NCBI RefSeq assembly: GCF_000010625.1
Contig: NC_010296.1
Location: 3,240,001 to 3,272,000, forward strand
Direction: 5' to 3'
DNA length: 32,000 bases
Source: Microcystis aeruginosa NIES-843
GTDB taxonomy: Bacteria > Cyanobacteriota > Cyanobacteriia > Cyanobacteriales > Microcystaceae
Positions within the stretch are counted from its first letter, which is position 1. The number at the start of each line of letters is the position of its first letter. Positions 1 to 8,021 of this stretch are shown here, piece by piece. Below the pieces are notes generated by a model. That model was not told the origin of the DNA. It worked only from the letters and a program-made list of their open reading frames with translations, and did no database searches. The translations under genes and the position numbers were made by a program.

Positions 1-432
1 TTCGCAGACAAAATTGAATCCTATTTCGTCGAACACCAGCTAGATTATACCGGCGCGGTGATCTATGAGGTAGTGTTAGCAGATCAGGCGATGGCAGAGG
101 AGTTGTATGAATCGATTCAGGAGGAGGAAATCAGCTTTCAGGAAGTAGCGCATCGCTATATCGAGGATGTGGAATTACGACGCAAGGGAGGTTATCGCGG
201 TACTGTTTACCGTAAGGATTTACGACCGAATCTTTCGGCCGCAATTTTCGCCTCGGATTCTTCTCGATTGTTGAAACCGCTGCAAGGCGATCGAGGTTTT
301 CACCTGATTTTTGTCGAGGAAATCCTTAAACCAAAATTAACCGAGGAGTTGGCTCTGAAAATCGGTGTTGATTTGTTTAACGGCTGGGTAAAGGAGAAGA
401 TTCAAGAGATAGAATACGAGTTTAGTAATTAA
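1..432 (+). CDS. PpiC/parvulin-type peptidyl-prolyl cis-trans isomerase, C-terminal part (5' end lies upstream of the window)
   Basis: Frame 1 is open from base 1 (FADKIESYFVEHQLDYTGAV...) into the listed ORF 58..432. It has a rotamase-like block ISFQEVAHRYIED...GGYRGTVYRKDL...GDRGFHLIFVEEI. Stop TAA at 430-432. Confidence 0.7.
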   Translation, partial: FADKIESYFVEHQLDYTGAVIYEVVLADQAMAEELYESIQEEEISFQEVAHRYIEDVELRRKGGYRGTVYRKDLRPNLSAAIFASDSSRLLKPLQGDRGFHLIFVEEILKPKLTEELALKIGVDLFNGWVKEKIQEIEYEFSN

Positions 433-489: not shown

Positions 490-687
490 ATGGAATGTGT
501 GATCTGTAAACAAGGCACGACTCGATCGGGTTTCGTAACTGTTACTTTAGAGAGAGATGATTGTATCGTGATTCTAAAACAAGTCCCCGCAGATGTCTGT
601 CAGAATTGCGGGGAGTATTATTTAAGTGAATCCGTAACGGCAGAGGTTTTACAGAATGCTGATCGCCTATTTTGTAGGTTGGGTTGA
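490..687 (+). pseudogene. YgiT/MqsA-N-terminal-type zinc-finger protein, diverged copy with its C-terminus replaced by a repeat/IS insertion
   Basis: MECVICKQG...CQNCGEYY (CxxC...CxxC) aligns with the 74-aa copies at 3308 and 4537 as far as ...AEVLQ. After about 662 the sequence runs into the hairpin repeat (…DRLFCRLG*) in place of AEDAVNKGAEVEIIRYVA. Confidence 0.55.
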
Positions 688-1008: not shown

Positions 1009-1945
<937 letters not shown>

Positions 1946-2475: not shown

Positions 2476-2635
2476 TAAATAACTCAATTAAGTTAGCTTG
2501 GTTGGTTCTCTTTGCTTCCAACAAGACAGGTTCAGAGTTTTTTGTACATAAATTACTCATTTTTGTTTCTTTAAATAGCTTGGAAGCCCGTTGTTTAATC
2601 GGTTTTGATGATGTTTTTGCAAAAAATAGTCTTTC

Positions 2636-2670
2636 AAAAAGAACATAAATAACTAAATTATGTTCTTTTT
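2636..2670. promoter_or_regulatory. Perfect 12-bp inverted repeat (aaaaagaacata-N11-tatgttcttttt) about 100 nt upstream of each peptide gene
   Basis: Seen at 2636-2670, 3865-3899 and 5094-5128. It could be an operator or an AT-rich terminator for the upstream zf gene. Confidence 0.35.
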
Positions 2671-2771
2671 GTTCGATTTTGATAGTTGATCTGGTGTTGA
2701 AAAATTGTTATGGTTTTCTTGAATCAATAATTTGATTCATTCATTTAGCGAAAATTTGGAGAATACATCTC

Positions 2772-2930
2772 ATGGCTAACATCAAAATCAACGAGCTCAA
2801 AAACACGGTGACTGACGAAATTATCGAGCTTCGCACCGATGCCGCTAACGACAGTCCAGAAAGCATCACCGCTTTTAAAACTTTACGTCAAGTTGCGGGC
2901 GGTACTATGGCTGCCAATTTTTTTTATTAG
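2772..2930 (+). CDS. GG-leader small peptide, copy 1 (52 aa; tail TMAANFFY)
   Basis: Not in the ORF track (<60 aa). GGAGA lies 9 nt upstream of the ATG. Sequence: MANIKINELKNTVTDEIIELRTDAANDSPESITAFKTLRQVAGG-TMAANFFY*. Hydrophobic residues at -4 and -7 relative to GG. Confidence 0.6.
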   Translation: MANIKINELKNTVTDEIIELRTDAANDSPESITAFKTLRQVAGGTMAANFFY

Positions 2931-2998
2931 TTTAAGTTTATTGTTGATTCCCTCGACTAATCCATTCGTTGTTCTTCGCTCGAAATAACTAATGATTT
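2931..2998 (-). pseudogene. ISL3-family transposase C-terminal remnant
   Basis: The reverse strand reads ...QIISYFERRTTNGLVEGINNKLKLIK(K/R), matching the NG.VEG.NNK.K.IKR block of ISL3 transposases. The fragment is only about 25 codons. A second copy lies at 4160-4227. Confidence 0.6.
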
Positions 2999-3186
2999 GG
3001 TTCTTCGTTACTTGGTATGGTTCGATCAGGGGGCATAAATCGGCTAAATCCTTATCTGGCAAGAGACTTAATTGATTAGCTCGTTCTAGATTGAAAACAA
3101 TTGGCAAAAATCGAAGCAATGTCTTTCTATATAAGGGTTTCACTCCTTATAACTCCCGTCCATTGCATAACACAAACCGAAGAACC
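2999..3186 (-). mobile_element. 188-bp ISL3-derived MITE
   Basis: Terminal inverted repeats ggttcttcg...cgaagaacc. The GGCTCTTCG-type terminus is typical of ISL3-family IRs. Same element at 4228-4415, 7834-8021 and 22128-22315. The internal MKPLYRK... ORF is a property of the element. Confidence 0.85.
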
Positions 3187-3250
3187 CGATTTGTTTAACG
3201 CCTGGGTAAAGGAGAAAATTCAGGAAATAGAATACGAGTTAAGTAATTAA
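3187..3250 (+). pseudogene. Fragment of the PPIase gene 3' end (last ~20 codons)
   Basis: gatttgtttaacgcctgggtaaaggagaaaattcaggaaatagaatacgagttaagtaattaa matches 371-432 (…DLFNGWVKEKIQEIEYE..SN*) with a few substitutions. There is no upstream coding continuation because the MITE abuts it. Confidence 0.85.
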
Positions 3251-3307
3251 TTGTGGACGGGGTGGGTTATGCTCACCCCGCAAACATAGTAAGGGAAGAT
3301 AAGAGTT

Positions 3308-3532
3308 ATGGAATGTGTGATCTGTAAACACGGCACGACTCGATCGGATTTTGTTACCGTTACTTTGGAGAGAGATAATTTTATCGTGATTCTAAAACAA
3401 GTCCCTGCGGATATCTGTCAAAATTGCGGGGAGTATTATCTAAGCGAGTCGGTTACGGCAGAGGTTTTACAGAAGGCCGAGGACGCGGTTAATAAAGGTG
3501 CGGAAGTAGAGATTATTCGCTATGTCGCTTAA
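3308..3532 (+). CDS. YgiT/MqsA-N-terminal-type zinc-finger protein (74 aa)
   Basis: CxxC (CVIC) ... CxxC (CQNC) zinc ribbon followed by GEYYLSE, the pattern of YgiT-type zinc-finger domains. No HTH domain follows. Identical copy at 4537..4761. Confidence 0.75.
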   Translation: MECVICKHGTTRSDFVTVTLERDNFIVILKQVPADICQNCGEYYLSESVTAEVLQKAEDAVNKGAEVEIIRYVA

Positions 3533-4000
3533 GTACAATATAAAACTATAAAATTAATACAATATGGATTAATAAAATACCAATAATCCGATTATTATTG
3601 AGTGAGTTTATTAAGCCTAAAAACAAACAAAGGTATTTTTAATACATACACTTTTAAAAATCTCTGAATTTATTTATTAACAGAATTCCCAGTTAATTAA
3701 AAAATAAATAACTCAATTAAGTTGGCTTGGTTGGTTCTCTTTGCTTCCAACAAGACAGGTTCAGAGTTTTTTGTACATAAATTACTCATTTTTGTTTCTT
3801 TAAATAGCTTGGAAGCCCGTTGTTTAATCGGTTTTGATGATGTTTTTGCAAAAAATAGTCTTTCAAAAAGAACATAAATAACTAAATTATGTTCTTTTTG
3901 TTCGATTTTGATAGTTGATCTGGTGTTGAAAAATTGTTATGGTTTTCTTGAATCAATAATTTGATTCATTCATTTAGCGAAAATTTGGAGAATACATCTC

Positions 4001-4159
4001 ATGGCTAACATCAAAATCAACGAGCTCAAAAACACGGTGACTGACGAAATTATCGAGCTTCGCACCGATGCCGCTAACGACAGTCCAGAAAGCATCACCG
4101 CTTTTAAAACTTTACGTCAAGTTGCGGGCGGTACTATTGGTGCCACTTCTTTTTATTAG
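4001..4159 (+). CDS. GG-leader small peptide, copy 2 (52 aa; tail TIGATSFY)
   Basis: Leader and SD are identical to copy 1. Tail codons are act att ggt gcc act tct ttt tat tag. Confidence 0.6.
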   Translation: MANIKINELKNTVTDEIIELRTDAANDSPESITAFKTLRQVAGGTIGATSFY

Positions 4160-4227
4160 TTTAAGTTTATTGTTGATTCCCTCGACTAATCCATTCGTTG
4201 TTCTTCGCTCGAAATAACTAATGATTT
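4160..4227 (-). pseudogene. ISL3-family transposase C-terminal remnant (copy 2)
   Basis: Same sequence as 2931-2998. The reverse strand reads ...NGLVEGINNKLKLIKR. Confidence 0.6.
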
Positions 4228-4415
4228 GGTTCTTCGTTACTTGGTATGGTTCGATCAGGGGGCATAAATCGGCTAAATCCTTATCTGGCAAGAGACTTAA
4301 TTGATTAGCTCGTTCTAGATTGAAAACAATTGGCAAAAATCGAAGCAATGTCTTTCTATATAAGGGTTTCACTCCTTATAACTCCCGTCCATTGCATAAC
4401 ACAAACCGAAGAACC
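4228..4415 (-). mobile_element. 188-bp ISL3-derived MITE (copy in repeat unit 2)
   Basis: Identical to 2999-3186. Confidence 0.85.
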
Positions 4416-4479
4416 CGATTTGTTTAACGCCTGGGTAAAGGAGAAAATTCAGGAAATAGAATACGAGTTAAGTAATTAA
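4416..4479 (+). pseudogene. Fragment of the PPIase gene 3' end (copy 2)
   Basis: Identical to 3187-3250. Confidence 0.85.
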
Positions 4480-4536
4480 TTGTGGACGGGGTGGGTTATG
4501 CTCACCCCGCAAACATAGTAAGGGAAGATAAGAGTT

Positions 4537-4761
4537 ATGGAATGTGTGATCTGTAAACACGGCACGACTCGATCGGATTTTGTTACCGTTACTTTGGAGA
4601 GAGATAATTTTATCGTGATTCTAAAACAAGTCCCTGCGGATATCTGTCAAAATTGCGGGGAGTATTATCTAAGCGAGTCGGTTACGGCAGAGGTTTTACA
4701 GAAGGCCGAGGACGCGGTTAATAAAGGTGCGGAAGTAGAGATTATTCGCTATGTCGCTTAA
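4537..4761 (+). CDS. YgiT/MqsA-N-terminal-type zinc-finger protein (74 aa), second identical copy
   Basis: Identical protein to 3308..3532. Confidence 0.75.
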   Translation: MECVICKHGTTRSDFVTVTLERDNFIVILKQVPADICQNCGEYYLSESVTAEVLQKAEDAVNKGAEVEIIRYVA

Positions 4762-5229
4762 GTACAATATAAAACTATAAAATTAATACAATATGGATTA
4801 ATAAAATACCAATAATCCGATTATTATTGAGTGAGTTTATTAAGCCTAAAAACAAACAAAGGTATTTTTAATACATACACTTTTAAAAATCTCTGAATTT
4901 ATTTATTAACAGAATTCCCAGTTAATTAAAAAATAAATAACTCAATTAAGTTGGCTTGGTTGGTTCTCTTTGCTTCCAACAAGACAGGTTCAGAGTTTTT
5001 TGTACATAAATTACTCATTTTTGTTTCTTTAAATAGCTTGGAAGCCCGTTGTTTAATCGGTTTTGATGATGTTTTTGTAAAAAATAGTCTTTCAAAAAGA
5101 ACATAAATAACTAAATTATGTTCTTTTTGTTCGATTTTGATAGTTGATCTGGTGTTGAAAAATTGTTATGGTTTTCTTGAATCAATAATTTGATTCATTC
5201 ATTTAGCGAAAATTTGGAGAATACATCTC

Positions 5230-5385
5230 ATGGCTAACATCAAAATCAACGAGCTCAAAAACACGGTGACTGACGAAATTATCGAGCTTCGCACCGATGC
5301 CGCCAACGACAGTCAAGAAAGCATTACCGCTTTTAAAACTTTACGTCAAGTAATGGGCGGTCGTGGTCAGTGGCGTCCGAGATAA
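5230..5385 (+). CDS. GG-leader small peptide, copy 3 (51 aa; tail RGQWRPR), in native 3' context
   Basis: Sequence: MANIKINELKNTVTDEIIELRTDAANDSQESITAFKTLRQVMGG-RGQWRPR*. Same GGAGA SD. Stop TAA at 5383-5385. Not in the ORF track. Confidence 0.65.
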   Translation: MANIKINELKNTVTDEIIELRTDAANDSQESITAFKTLRQVMGGRGQWRPR

Positions 5386-5521
5386 TAACAAAATACAGAG
5401 ATTGATCGGTATTTTATCGTTCTCTCTTTTTGATTTCTACGATAGTTCAACAAGTCAAGATACTCCGTTGACTATCGTGGAAATACTAACCAGACAAAGA
5501 TCGCATTTTTCGAGAATATGT

Positions 5522-6880
5522 ATGCTATTTTTAAACGATCTTCCCATTCCTTGGAGTCATCGCCCCTATTTCGATCTTAGTCCCTATCAATCCGGAGCTT
5601 GGCATATTCAAGGAATTGACTATAGCTATCGAAACCTCGTCTCCGAAGTACAAAATGTTGGTACGTCTCTTTCCGTGAACCCAGTTACTCTCGTTCACCC
5701 AGCTTCTTTTCGAGAACAATTAATTCGTGAGACTGGTCTTTTTCAATACTCGATTAAAAATCCTCTCGCTCTCCCCGATGAGTTGAGAACCGAGCGCTGG
5801 AGAGTTCTTTGCTCGCATTTAGTTCATTATCGGGAACTTTCACCCACTACTCAACTGGAAACAATTAATTTATTATCGAGTTTATGCTTTCATGAAGCGA
5901 TTCTTAAATATGTTACTGCGAGTACCGATGAAGACATCACGAGAGATTCCACGATCGCTAAATTAGCTTATAGTCGGGCGATGTCTAAAATCCTCTGTCA
6001 AGAAAGTATTGGCACATCGGAAAATCTTGAAGATTTAAAGCAGCTCGTTCAACACGCTTCTAAAGAAAGCTTCGTGGTTTTCGGGGCGGCCGTAGAACTA
6101 ATCGTTTTACACGCTACTGTATTTCGAGATCTAGCCGCGGTCGCTCATTGGCGAGAAGTGGCAAGCGGAGCGCTCGATCACCTCGAACCTTCCCTCGATC
6201 ATTTCGAGTTCAAACGTTTAACCAGTTTTTACCACCGCGCGGCTGTTTTCGCTCCACTTCTGCTGGGTGAGCGGCAAACAGTTGTCCGTGAAATGGATAT
6301 CTGCCAATCTCTAGCGGAAGAGCTGATCCGCGAGTGCAAAAATGAGACGGAACGAATTTCCGCCCATGACAATCTAACGACGGTTTTCGAGAGCCGAACG
6401 AAAGAAGCCCTCTGGTTGGGTGATATCGATCTCGCCGGAGAGAGAGCGAAGAAAATGGTAGAACTGGAACCTCTCTACTCTCACTATCGCCTACAACTAG
6501 GGGAAGTCTTACTAAAACAAAATAAATTTGAAGAGGCGGCGAAAATCTATCGCTCCGCCACTAGACTCGGCCCGCCTGGAATGGCGATCGCTTGGTTTAT
6601 GGCTGGGCAATGTCACGAACGATTAGGAGAGATAGACATCGCCTGTGATTGCTATCTAGCCTCCGTACAGATGGATGAACTAGCTATCTCCGCCGTGGAG
6701 AAAATTAACAAATTAGCTCCCCGTTTAGGTAACTCGATGCTGACAGATTGGAGTACCGCGCGTCTAGAACAATTACGGGAACAACAGCGAGGTATCGTCT
6801 CTAAAACGAAAACTTCCTATATTCCTGAAGCCGCTTCTGCACTGAAATTAGCGGGTGAACGCGAACTCTCTCAAATTTAA
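5522..6880 (+). CDS. All-helical TPR-containing protein of unknown function (start uncertain: the ORF is open from 5363; candidates are TTG 5402, GTG 5477, ATG 5522)
   Basis: Long ORF with coherent composition. C-terminal TPR-like repeats: AKKMVELEPLYSHYRLQLGEVLLKQNKFEEAAKIYRSATRLGPPGMAIAWFMAGQCHERLGEIDIACDCYLASVQMD. I recognise no catalytic motif or HTH. Confidence 0.7.
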   Translation: MLFLNDLPIPWSHRPYFDLSPYQSGAWHIQGIDYSYRNLVSEVQNVGTSLSVNPVTLVHPASFREQLIRETGLFQYSIKNPLALPDELRTERWRVLCSHLVHYRELSPTTQLETINLLSSLCFHEAILKYVTASTDEDITRDSTIAKLAYSRAMSKILCQESIGTSENLEDLKQLVQHASKESFVVFGAAVELIVLHATVFRDLAAVAHWREVASGALDHLEPSLDHFEFKRLTSFYHRAAVFAPLLLGERQTVVREMDICQSLAEELIRECKNETERISAHDNLTTVFESRTKEALWLGDIDLAGERAKKMVELEPLYSHYRLQLGEVLLKQNKFEEAAKIYRSATRLGPPGMAIAWFMAGQCHERLGEIDIACDCYLASVQMDELAISAVEKINKLAPRLGNSMLTDWSTARLEQLREQQRGIVSKTKTSYIPEAASALKLAGERELSQI

Positions 6881-6900
6881 ATCAAGGCGATCGCCGATCT

Positions 6901-6945
6901 GGTAGGTTGGGTTGACGCAAGGAAACCCAACAATTCCCCTAAAAC
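6901..6945. repeat. REP-like hairpin repeat (ggttgggtt gacgcaagg aaacccaac)
   Basis: Same family as 674-720 and 7787-7833. It lies 20 nt after the TPR gene stop and may double as its terminator hairpin. Confidence 0.7.
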
Positions 6946-7143
6946 TTACCGAAAACTCAATTAGGCAAAATCGTCTTACCACAGAAGTGATGCAAGAAAC
7001 TCAGATAGAGTTTGTTCGCTCCTATATTGATGCGGGTGAGTGTGGACTGACCCTGCTAAATAGACCTCTCCAATAATTGTCAAAATAAGAGATGAAGCCC
7101 TGACTAAGAGCTTATCAAAAATCTTTTCTGGAGAGGTATAATA

Positions 7144-7491
7144 GTGAAGAATCAACAGTTGGTAGCCACTAAGGCTGTTGATAAAGTGGATGATGTGACT
7201 AATGTGAATGACCCATATAATATTGCCAAACAAGGGGGTAAGCACTCTGGATTCTATAACGAATATGCCAAAAAGCCAGACTCTCAAATCCGAAAAGGAA
7301 TTGAATCTATAAACAAGCAAATTTCTGAACATCAAAAAAAGATTGAAGCTCCCCAAAAATTTATACCTGATTTTGATAATCTTGATCCTAGACAGCAAAA
7401 AGCTCTTCCCGATAAATGGCAAAGTGACATAAATCGGCAGAGCGAGCAAAAGACTATACTAGAAGGCCTACTCAAGGAGAGAGGACTATGA
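7144..7491 (+). CDS. Hypothetical charged 115-aa protein (possible orphan toxin-like module)
   Basis: GTG start preceded by GGAGAGG. Hydrophilic, helical sequence ...QGGKHSGFYNEYAKKPDSQIRKGIESINKQISEHQKKI...LDPRQQKALPDKWQSDINRQSEQ. It is preferred over the low-complexity antisense ORF 6976..7449. ATGA overlap with the next gene. Confidence 0.55.
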   Translation: MKNQQLVATKAVDKVDDVTNVNDPYNIAKQGGKHSGFYNEYAKKPDSQIRKGIESINKQISEHQKKIEAPQKFIPDFDNLDPRQQKALPDKWQSDINRQSEQKTILEGLLKERGL

Positions 7492-7730
7492 ATACAGAAT
7501 CTGTTAACTTTATCAAAGATCATGCACTTATTCTCAAAGAAAAGTACAATGAATCCCTCGCAAAAATTAACGAAGCTGACATAAAAGGAGAGGACTCTTC
7601 TTTCTATAAAGGACAAAGCCTTGCTTATTATGATGCTCTTGATTTGATCAAGTCTCAGGTAGAAGCATTTGGTTACAACTCGAAGGAAGTCAACCTGGTT
7701 GTTCCTGAATTTGGCAAACAAGCAACTTAG
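7488..7730 (+). CDS. Hypothetical acidic 80-aa protein (possible cognate immunity/antitoxin)
   Basis: ATG 7488 overlaps the upstream TGA (ATGA), indicating translational coupling. Small acidic helical protein. Confidence 0.55.
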   Translation: MNTESVNFIKDHALILKEKYNESLAKINEADIKGEDSSFYKGQSLAYYDALDLIKSQVEAFGYNSKEVNLVVPEFGKQAT

Positions 7731-7786: not shown

Positions 7787-7833
7787 CAAGGTTGGATTGA
7801 CAACGGAAACCCAACATCATCCCCCTATTATTC
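7787..7833. repeat. REP-like hairpin repeat
   Basis: caaggttggattgacaacggaaacccaacatcatccccctattattc is near-identical to 674-720 and ends at the same base, directly abutting a MITE. Confidence 0.8.
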
Positions 7834-8021
7834 GGCTCTTCGTTACTTGGTATGGTTCGATAGGGGGGCATAAATCGACTAAATCCTTATCTGGCAAGAG
7901 ATTTAATTGATTAGTTCGCTCTAGATCAAAAACAATTGGCAAAAATCGAAGCAATGTCTTTCTATATAAGGGTTTCATCCCTTATAACCTCCGTCCATTG
8001 CATAACACAAACCGAAGAGCC
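7834..8021 (-). mobile_element. 188-bp ISL3-derived MITE
   Basis: TIRs ggctcttcg...cgaagagcc. The interior is homologous to the copies at 2999, 4228 and 22128, with scattered substitutions. Confidence 0.85.

Follow-up and report, generated by a model that had tools for sequence, protein, structure and literature searches.

A tryptophan-containing GG-leader peptide and its neighbouring TPR-family protein in Microcystis aeruginosa: a candidate co-varying peptide/partner pair

Why should the gene of a short peptide with a GG leader lie directly in front of a gene for a large helical-repeat protein that is annotated only as hypothetical, and what might the one product do with the other? This question is raised by a 32,000-nt stretch of Microcystis aeruginosa NIES-843 (assembly GCF_000010625.1, contig NC_010296.1, positions 3,240,001 to 3,272,000 of the forward strand), which is referred to as the window throughout and from whose first letter all coordinates given without a locus identifier are counted. 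Here, a precursor peptide gene at 5230..5385 precedes a gene for a tetratricopeptide repeat (TPR) protein at 5522..6880. A preliminary description of this DNA, made from the letters alone, had proposed either a peptide/receptor pair following the logic of the RRNPP quorum-sensing systems or a protein recognising the leader for a modifying enzyme. In this study, we find the pairing conserved across genera and phyla, a Trp residue in nearly every peptide core and an N-terminal domain of the TPR protein that varies in step with the core, which points to a specific peptide/partner pair for which no cyanobacterial example has yet been described. The explanation that we rank first, with a probability of roughly 40%, is that the TPR protein is a non-catalytic, core-specific peptide clamp binding the product of its upstream gene.

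The intact precursor open reading frame (ORF; 5230..5385, + strand) encodes 51 residues, namely MANIKINELKNTVTDEIIELRTDAANDSQESITAFKTLRQVMGG followed by the core RGQWRPR. Its leader (5230..5361, + strand) comprises 44 residues, ends in ...FKTLRQVMGG and is near-invariant across Microcystis strains, while the core with the stop codon (5362..5385, + strand) is hypervariable between strains, with Trp retained. As had been noted at the outset, this is the only peptide copy with a native 3' context, the other two (2772..2930 and 4001..4159) being cut by an ISL3-like remnant. The two genes do not overlap and are separated by 136 nt of intergenic spacer (5386..5521, + strand), which is itself part of the hypervariable cassette discussed below. 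The long frame of the second gene is indeed open from a GTG at 5363, which would give 505 aa, yet its true start is the ATG at 5522 (452 aa), as shown by the database protein and by all ~100 homologues, which begin at this position. In PCC 9809, a 'conserved hypothetical protein' shows 100% identity to the product of 5522..6880 (also BAG03419.1, record AP019314.1), and six other Microcystis contigs carry the same or nearly the same peptide gene upstream of an identical TPR gene. A promoter and terminator scan of positions 4900-7200 gave no signal above shuffled background and no terminator between the peptide and TPR genes.

The adjacency is not confined to Microcystis. In a synteny scan covering one genome per prokaryotic species, 50 loci were found, and a GG-leader peptide gene was located 150-770 nt upstream of the TPR gene on the same strand in all 21 cyanobacterial loci, among them those of Nostoc, Desmonostoc, Anabaena, Anabaenopsis, Crocosphaera, Coleofasciculus, Moorena, Calothrix and Chlorogloeopsis. 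Each cyanobacterial TPR gene is accompanied by a single peptide gene, unlike the promiscuous enzymes of ribosomally synthesised and post-translationally modified peptide (RiPP) pathways, which serve many precursors. Genes for a peptidase-containing ABC transporter (PCAT) and for HlyD lie within 10 kb in most of these loci. Type A clusters combine a long PCAT and a rotamase with a leader of the form MA[NE]IKI...AFxxLRGG, type B clusters carry a short PCAT and HlyD directly 3' of the TPR gene with a leader ending in ...ELSFEAMETISGG, and minimal clusters consist of precursor, TPR gene, PCAT and HlyD alone. The cyanobacterial clusters lack a gene for a modifying enzyme. Sister Microcystis contigs (including L005, L006 and L061) show the order cyclic-nucleotide (cNMP)-binding/C39-peptidase/ABC transporter, HlyD, PpiC rotamase, sometimes an MqsA-like gene, precursor and TPR gene; the window begins within the rotamase gene, with the PCAT (cNMP-C39-ABC) and HlyD genes upstream of it. 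In Desmonostoc muscorum (L001:2554-7077) the peptide/TPR pair lies just 3' of at least eight other GG-leader genes, some of them Nif11-type, and a radical SAM enzyme, with a single PCAT/HlyD/rotamase set, encoded on the opposite strand, apparently serving array and pair alike. The region in NIES-843 is heavily rearranged, with a tandem triplication and insertion sequence (IS) remnants, and peptide and TPR gene might be unrelated neighbours brought together by accident in such IS-rich surroundings; synteny in all 21 cyanobacterial genomes found, as well as in other phyla, together with a co-variation boundary placed exactly at the core start, leaves this reading a negligible chance. The preliminary description had made its proposal depend on synteny in other genomes, and peptide-TPR synteny proves to be conserved across both genera and phyla.

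The cores themselves share one feature. Trp is present in 26 of 27 distinct cyanobacterial cores, where ~4.3 would be expected at background frequency and none of 200,000 simulations reached 26, and it accounts for 8.4% of their residues. It mostly follows Lys or Cys and sits, in short cores, 4-6 residues from the C-terminus; in Microcystis, whose core types include RGQWRPR, RCRWPQIC, CCRWTVEV, CCSWNQCCKPSSF, CCRWCCC..., CCCWCIVIIVV and AAAAKWTVKWKVAVK, among others, it is always found at position 4 or 6. The one cyanobacterial core lacking Trp, ATLHKSSLL of Chlorogloeopsis, breaks the Trp rule and is accounted for by none of the explanations considered here. A further Microcystis precursor, P0126, keeps the first 32 leader residues and then continues into a Pro-rich, Trp-free tail, ..GGGGKKPTTKPKPVLVPVPFPPTCPPPPPCPPPDQQK, and is possibly a recombinant with another peptide family. 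An invariant Trp within a hypervariable short core, beside a co-varying neighbour, mirrors the ComX pheromone and its modifying enzyme ComQ. By the same logic, the TPR protein might be a new, class-defining RiPP maturase that modifies the conserved Trp, or the neighbouring Cys or Lys, before cleavage and export by the PCAT; the variable N-domain would then shape the substrate pocket and an invariant polar cluster in the TPR part would form the active site. The minimal clusters of precursor, TPR gene, PCAT and HlyD also have the layout of a one-enzyme RiPP pathway. We place this reading second, as an unlikely but serious competitor of the clamp, for reasons that lie in the protein and its relatives.

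Within Microcystis, peptide and TPR protein vary together. Between PCC 9809 (core RGQWRPR) and Microcystis M048S1 (core CCSWNQCCKPSSF), amino-acid identity amounts to 98.5% for the PCAT, 98.1% for HlyD, 98.8% for the rotamase, 98-100% for two downstream ORFs and 93% for the leader, but to only 68% for the TPR protein; the most diverged Microcystis allele in the comparison is that of L061. Over the Microcystis strains as a whole, exporter genes and flanking ORFs are 90-100% and leaders 93-98% identical. At the nucleotide level, identity stays at 97-100% through the leader end, drops to 42-68% from the first core codon to approximately TPR codon 258, and climbs back 3' of that point to 87-96% in the TPR-repeat part and 100% downstream. 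The TPR gene is thus divided into an allele-specific stretch for the N-terminal domain (5522..6301, + strand, ~residues 1-260), which co-varies with the core, and a conserved C-terminal part (6302..6880, + strand) containing three canonical TPRs and a low-confidence tail. Among five core types, N-domains are 95-96% identical when the core is the same and 49-85% identical when it differs, the C-terminal part being 89-98% identical in every pair; in diverged alleles, amino-acid identity is 50% in the N-domain versus 93% in the C-terminal part. Core, spacer and N-domain consequently form one hypervariable cassette with a single N-domain allele per core type. The co-occurrence and co-variation that the preliminary description had proposed as a check are both found, the pair being present in 21/21 cyanobacterial genomes and the N-domain allele tracking the core type. 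The extent of this cassette over core, spacer and N-domain is, in our view, a strong though indirect indication that the core, and not the leader, is in contact with the N-domain. The earlier suggestion that the TPR protein recognises the leader for a modifying enzyme is borne out by half at most: it is the core that co-varies, which contradicts recognition of the leader, and modifying enzymes adjoin or are fused to relatives elsewhere but are absent from the cyanobacterial clusters.

The ratio of nonsynonymous to synonymous substitution rates (dN/dS) in the N-domain is 0.13-0.29 and gives no sign of recent positive selection, and the most distant alleles have reached saturation at synonymous sites. 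Saturation together with a dN/dS below 0.3 therefore indicates old, discrete allelic lineages within homogenised flanks, so that, judged by substitution patterns, the alleles are old rather than fast-evolving. Old discrete alleles between homogenised flanks are likewise known from comQXP, agr and toxin-immunity loci, and two further readings have to be weighed here. In the first, the TPR protein would be a Rap-like intracellular receptor: the exported core would be re-imported and bind the N-domain, altering engagement of a constant cellular partner by the TPR part, and the alleles would represent signalling groups, like those of PlcR-PapR and ComQXP. This agrees with the position of a gene for a cytoplasmic TPR protein next to that of a short exported peptide, with the maintenance of old alleles as discrete types and with the fact that the TPR gene is the only co-varying gene near the core, as polymorphic signals demand; Rap proteins, moreover, also lack a helix-turn-helix (HTH) domain. 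The gene order, however, is opposite to that of Rap-Phr, NprR-NprX and PlcR-PapR, and no Opp-type importer is linked to the pair. In the second, the short cationic Trp- or Cys-rich cores would be antimicrobial and the TPR protein an immunity factor that sequesters them in the producer. The order of toxin and then immunity gene, with a variable block between conserved export flanks that reaches from the end of the toxin into the beginning of the following gene, is typical of polymorphic toxin/immunity loci, and some cores, for example RGQWRPR and AAAAKWTVKWKVAVK, are similar to Arg/Lys-Trp antimicrobial motifs. Against immunity stands a soluble protein of 452 aa with a C-terminal half conserved in six or more phyla, which is unlike class II immunity proteins, and which is moreover cytoplasmic whereas the peptide is exported across both membranes. 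The annotation 'bacteriocin' that PMC3140520 gives to this type of cluster would favour an immunity role.

The structure of the TPR protein bears on all of these readings. Its AlphaFold2 model (pLDDT 90.3, pTM 0.88, 49-sequence alignment) is all-helical and, at 452 aa, falls within the roughly 450-500 residues assumed at first. The TPR repeats that had been seen in the C-terminal third are matched by the Pfam families TPR_2, TPR_16 and TPR_8, exclusively in this third. They form three tandem 34-residue helix-turn-helix repeats, as defines the TPR superfamily, at ~residues 288-400 (nt 6383-6721), with the remaining chain aligning to TPR solenoids at low TM-score. In a sequence profile search of the PDB (top 60 matches), the matches were confined to positions 292-400, i.e. 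the three canonical TPRs. The whole protein retrieved generic TPR solenoids (designed consensus TPR, OGT, APC subunits, the peptide binders PEX5 and LGN, IFIT5) with TM-scores of at most 0.48 in Foldseek against the PDB (top 50 matches) and only generic TPR and Sel1 proteins in Foldseek against a viral library (top 50 matches). For the N-domain, which was modelled separately with AlphaFold2 (residues 1-274, pLDDT 91.1), Foldseek found nothing significant (best E = 0.07), and its weak top matches are peptide-binding helical cradles such as 14-3-3. In agreement with the lack of a visible catalytic or DNA-binding motif stated at the outset, no catalytic or DNA-binding family was detected by Pfam, NCBIfam, PDB profile search or Foldseek, and none of these searches assigns the protein to a well-known unrelated family. 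NCBIfam contains no family for the TPR protein, for the three precursor types or for the ~135-aa partner introduced below, and the sole NCBIfam matches of the TPR protein are sub-threshold TPR similarities such as LcrH/SycD.

Three further assignments were rejected. A SARP/BTAD activator would combine a winged helix with a BTAD domain, of which Pfam finds only BTAD at E = 0.095 with the DNA-binding domain absent; an LcrH/SycD chaperone of type III secretion systems (T3SS) reaches 23.7-35.7 bits in NCBIfam against a cut-off of 104.8, with no T3SS genes nearby; and a membrane or secreted location could be suspected from a lone hydrophobic helix at 183-201 (Kyte-Doolittle 2.0), but the homologue consensus is charged there and the model packs the helix into the solenoid. 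From alignment and model, we therefore treat the TPR protein as soluble and cytoplasmic.

For the receptor, these searches yield no effector domain and no RRNPP or AimR structure: Rap, NprR, PlcR, PrgX, Rgg and AimR are absent from the top 60 PDB profile matches and the top 50 Foldseek matches in both PDB and viral library, and the Foldseek comparison with Rap, NprR, PlcR and Rgg structures proposed in the preliminary description accordingly found none of them in the top 50 PDB matches. No HTH was detected in Pfam or NCBIfam and the N-domain model is without a significant PDB neighbour, although a Rap-like bundle, and with it an HTH-less receptor of the Rap type, keeps a small probability. Of the RRNPP-like pair first suggested, the specific peptide/partner relationship is thus borne out by the allele co-variation, whereas membership in the RRNPP family is not, with respect to effector domain, homology and export route.

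For the maturase, the family alignment has its strictly invariant residues concentrated in TPRs one and three, within the motifs ESRTKEALWLGD and GPPGxAIAWFMAGQC, with R239 and M258 in addition. The polar residues E290, S291, R292, K294, E295, Y343, Q363, C364 and D385 are retained despite 25-30% overall identity, and such strict invariance of polar residues across phyla is enzyme-like. On the other hand, the searches brought up neither a known catalytic fold nor a cofactor motif or metal-ligand pattern; the entire chain forms a TPR-like solenoid, and its N-domain has no enzyme as structural neighbour. A polyprenyl or terpenoid synthase in particular is matched neither by Pfam nor, for whole protein and N-domain, by Foldseek, and the alignment has no conserved DDxxD column. 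In its model, the N-domain shows no sign of a known enzyme fold, a polyprenyl synthase or an HTH. Tight co-variation with the core is also atypical of RiPP enzymes, which normally recognise the leader and tolerate core variation.

Relatives in other phyla widen the picture considerably. A hidden Markov model scan of 1.84 billion representative proteins returned 577 clusters (50% identity) with E <1e-30 from six or more phyla. Most are 400-450 aa long, and ~14 of the top 150 measure 740-900 aa. Nine of the ten long relatives scanned with Pfam contain TPR repeats only, in both halves, and the Chloroflexota relative does likewise; in P0128, P0129, P0134 and P0135, which are duplicated, both halves carry variants of the motif E-[ST]-R-x-K-E. 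The idea that the long relatives are Rosetta-stone fusions was consequently dropped, since nine of these ten fit tandem duplication and P0206 alone has an enzyme domain. Recurrent tandem duplication involving TPRs only makes a dimeric working unit likely, and the TPR protein thus probably acts as a dimer. Such whole-protein duplications recur in several lineages, and in one of them (L032:8594-11272) an M3-like peptidase comes next.

Outside cyanobacteria, a small gene again lies immediately upstream of the TPR-family gene, while the third-party genes differ. In Vulcanimicrobiota and Nannocystaceae (L035:9-4618, L036:9525-13795), precursors ending in ..VLCW or ..AMCW, 54% identical to each other, are followed by a TPR relative, YcaO and TfuA, an arrangement suggestive of a so far undescribed RiPP cluster of thioamide type whose peptide ends in Cys-Trp. 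In Blastocatellia (L033:1374-9148), the operon comprises a flavin Trp halogenase, a TPR relative, YcaO, TfuA, an amidohydrolase and an O-methyltransferase; no precursor gene was found in it. In all 22 Bradyrhizobium-type loci (L039-L060), a ~135-aa protein precedes the TPR relative and a major facilitator superfamily pump follows. This protein is weakly DUF4760-like with a conserved tail ..A-x-F-G (..GGMHA[LRK]FG, ..CALFG), and its loci occur in Bradyrhizobium, Roseobacter, Methylomirabilota and others (e.g. L048:6140-12552). A giant protein of ~1110 aa with zinc-ribbon, adenylate-cyclase, AAA_16 and TPR parts is usually encoded upstream of the ~135-aa gene, though in many loci it is missing or lies on the other side. 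Parts with a link to cyclic nucleotides hence recur around the family, as a cNMP-binding domain on the cyanobacterial PCAT and as the adenylate-cyclase giant near proteobacterial relatives. Finally, in P0206 (805 aa, three independent assemblies, L069, L070 and L071), a PP-loop ATP pyrophosphatase with an SGGKDS motif (WbuX-like 1e-24, LarE-like 2e-8) is fused N-terminally to the TPR-family domain. Its locus (L069:1055-6231) has a homologue of the ~135-aa protein upstream and, downstream, a gene for a 310-aa protein without assignment, then a vanadium-haloperoxidase-like gene, the second halogenating enzyme found beside the TPR family.

These neighbours redistribute the weight among the alternatives. 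A constant precursor and TPR gene with varying tailoring enzymes is the usual look of RiPP classes and speaks for a maturase, while the ~135-aa proteobacterial partners without Trp speak against one. For the receptor, a link to cyclic nucleotides could be seen in the cNMP-binding domain on the PCAT and in the adenylate-cyclase-STAND protein beside the proteobacterial relatives. That homologues are embedded in biosynthetic operons, with the precursor on one side and YcaO-TfuA on the other, and that one of them is joined to a PP-loop enzyme in a single chain, would be odd for a receptor. An immunity factor is equally difficult to reconcile with relatives that are paired with ~135-aa partners not resembling toxins or that lie inside YcaO-TfuA operons. 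Receptor and immunity readings both predict the co-variation observed in Microcystis but fit poorly with the relatives in YcaO-TfuA operons, and we consider each of them improbable, below the maturase, which in turn ranks below the clamp.

All data fit a specific physical pairing of the upstream product with the TPR protein, as far as sequence comparison can indicate it. We propose a model in which the TPR protein, as a peptide clamp, would bind the unprocessed precursor in the cytoplasm and hold, neutralise or present it. The invariant groove of the three C-terminal TPRs would hold a constant feature of the ligand, Trp or another aromatic residue near the free C-terminus, while the variable N-domain of ~260 residues would read the remainder of the hypervariable core, each strain carrying a matched core/N-domain cassette. 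In cyanobacteria, the peptide would then pass to the GG-leader peptidase/ABC exporter with HlyD, and in other phyla to YcaO-TfuA, to halogenases or to the fused PP-loop ATPase. TPR clamps of Hop and PEX5 bind C-terminal peptides, and by analogy a C-terminal aromatic residue held in the invariant TPR groove is the obvious candidate for the constant contact; the binding itself, its division between the two protein parts and the escort role we infer from gene pairing and co-variation. We rank the clamp first because no enzyme fold is detectable, because the enzyme neighbours are varied, with one fusion among them, and because tandem duplication is scaffold-like. Enzymes beside or fused to relatives, i.e. 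YcaO-TfuA, Trp halogenase, a haloperoxidase-like protein and the PP-loop domain, would suit a module that holds their substrate.

Several observations weigh against this model. The Trp-free core of Chlorogloeopsis (L003/L028:7645-7791) belongs to a cluster in which TPR gene, PCAT and HlyD are intact, and the tails of the proteobacterial partners have Phe in place of Trp. Many cyanobacterial PCAT/HlyD/rotamase sets, such as the second set in L013, occur without the TPR protein and, to our knowledge, known PCAT exporters work without a chaperone; nor is it evident why a core of seven residues would require a dedicated escort of 452 aa. The string of invariant polar residues, taken from the alignment, would also fit an active site.

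As far as the searches reach, a description exists for the export cluster, but for neither the TPR family nor the Trp rule nor the allele cassette. The export set is the one that Wang et al. 2011 (PMC3140520) placed in 'group I' of the putative bacteriocin clusters, and in the searchable text of that study and of a follow-up survey (PMC4558948) the TPR gene is not mentioned; a literature search of the full texts open to it likewise found no description of the TPR protein. In PMC3720943 an induced TPR_2 gene, MAE_55030, is reported, which could not be equated with the gene at 5522..6880 and was left unused. We hold it possible, though only tentatively, that Microcystis and many other cyanobacteria possess here a strain-specific Trp-peptide/TPR recognition system, its two parts diversifying together as discrete alleles, in which the family represents a new Trp RiPP maturase or a new HTH-less receptor. 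Should the protein prove a maturase or a receptor, the class would be new, and a receptor would make the locus the first system for peptide pherotypes or kin recognition among cyanobacteria; otherwise it would be a variant of the theme of a polymorphic peptide with its cognate partner. Whether scaffold, enzyme or receptor, the TPR family marks a class of peptide clusters absent from the searchable curated models and papers. Microcystis blooms are mixtures of many strains and the control of strain-strain interaction is an open question. Diverged discrete alleles in near-identical flanks are a signature of self/non-self discrimination, as in pherotypes and toxin-immunity pairs, and the locus thereby offers a directly testable handle on strain interaction in Microcystis.

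The surroundings of the pair in the window record the rearrangement of this region. The 3' part of the rotamase ('SurA', PpiC-type) gene occupies 1..432 (+ strand; Pfam Rotamase 1.8e-10, 99% identity to the rotamase of L005). A 1229-bp unit is tandemly repeated at 2476..5233 (+ strand), with unit starts at 2476, 3705 and 4934 and repeat families D1-D4 at 1229-nt spacing; each unit includes the promoter and leader of the peptide gene together with an ISL3-like remnant, a 3' rotamase fragment and an MqsA-like zinc-finger ORF. The tandem repeat left two IS-truncated precursor pseudogenes upstream of the intact gene. In copy 1 (2772..2930, + strand) the leader is intact and the core is cut after GG-TMAA by the IS remnant, and copy 2 (4001..4159, + strand) likewise has an intact leader and a cut core. 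Both match the intact M. novacekii allele (AAAAKW...) for ~5 codons into the core, homology stopping just before its Lys-Trp, and then enter the ISL3-like remnant. ISL3-like transposase remnants are located on the - strand inside the repeat units (2883..3143 and 4112..4372), with a third at 7817..7978, and an IS110-family (DEDD) transposase in the first repeat region is apparently split by a frameshift into two overlapping ORFs (1009..1710 and 1490..1945). The MqsA/YgiT-type zinc-finger antitoxin-like ORF of 74 aa is present in three copies, one of them truncated (3308..3532, 4537..4761 and 490..687), and no toxin partner for it was found within the window. In two other Microcystis contigs, L063 and L067, a DUF4258 gene lies directly upstream of the MqsA-like ORF, which suggests a toxin-antitoxin pair inserted between rotamase and precursor. 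Directly 3' of the TPR gene follow two small overlapping ORFs, 7144..7491 (115 aa) and 7488..7730 (80 aa), which match no Pfam or NCBIfam family and are 98-100% conserved in other Microcystis strains regardless of the peptide/TPR allele; in some allele contexts (L063, L065) they are missing.

Several known systems come close to the locus. Groups I-III of Wang et al. 2011 share its export machinery, either the long cNMP-C39-ABC protein with HlyD and a SurA-like rotamase or a short PCAT with HlyD (PMC3140520), and the group I set of cNMP-C39-ABC, HlyD, SurA-like rotamase and GG-leader precursor is found in L005, L006 and L061. Clusters of this type mostly lack a TPR gene, and neither Trp rule nor allele cassette is mentioned in the accessible portions of PMC3140520 and PMC4558948.

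The RRNPP systems (Rap-Phr, NprR-NprX, PlcR-PapR, Rgg-SHP, ComR-ComS, AimR-AimP) likewise place a cytoplasmic TPR-type protein beside a short secreted peptide. They show peptide/partner specificity classes, as in the PlcR-PapR pherotypes, and Trp is important in some of their pheromones, e.g. ComS. The TPR-type helical-repeat domain and the co-evolving specificity classes are both present at our locus. Unlike RRNPP systems, however, the locus shows neither an HTH nor a known effector domain, and no relationship in sequence or structure is detectable past generic TPR; the peptide is encoded upstream of its partner, export relies on a GG leader and PCAT instead of Sec/PptAB, the hosts are Gram-negative and relatives reside in biosynthetic operons.

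With ComQ-ComX of B. subtilis, the locus shares a precursor of ~55 aa with a conserved leader and a short hypervariable C-terminal core carrying one Trp. It also shares an adjacent all-helical protein that is polymorphic in step with the core and old discrete alleles between conserved flanks. The ComX features of a short precursor, conserved leader and variable core with Trp are all found here. ComQ is a Trp-prenylating homologue of polyprenyl synthases, whereas the present protein is a TPR-like solenoid without such a fold; the gene order is reversed, a GG leader and PCAT export are used, and no polymorphic ComP-type kinase is adjacent.

In terms of the proposed clamp, two further systems are comparable. 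T3SS class II chaperones such as LcrH, SycD and IpgC are dimeric modules of three TPRs and keep an extended peptide of the secretion substrate bound in the cytoplasm, as is proposed here for the precursor. They measure ~160 aa and belong to a T3SS context, whereas the present protein would add a specificity domain of 260 aa and lies in a PCAT or RiPP context. RiPP recognition elements (RREs; PqqD-like), finally, are also encoded beside the precursor and next to, or fused with, diverse modifying enzymes; an RRE, however, is a small winged-helix binder of the leader, whereas here a TPR solenoid is found whose variable part tracks the core.

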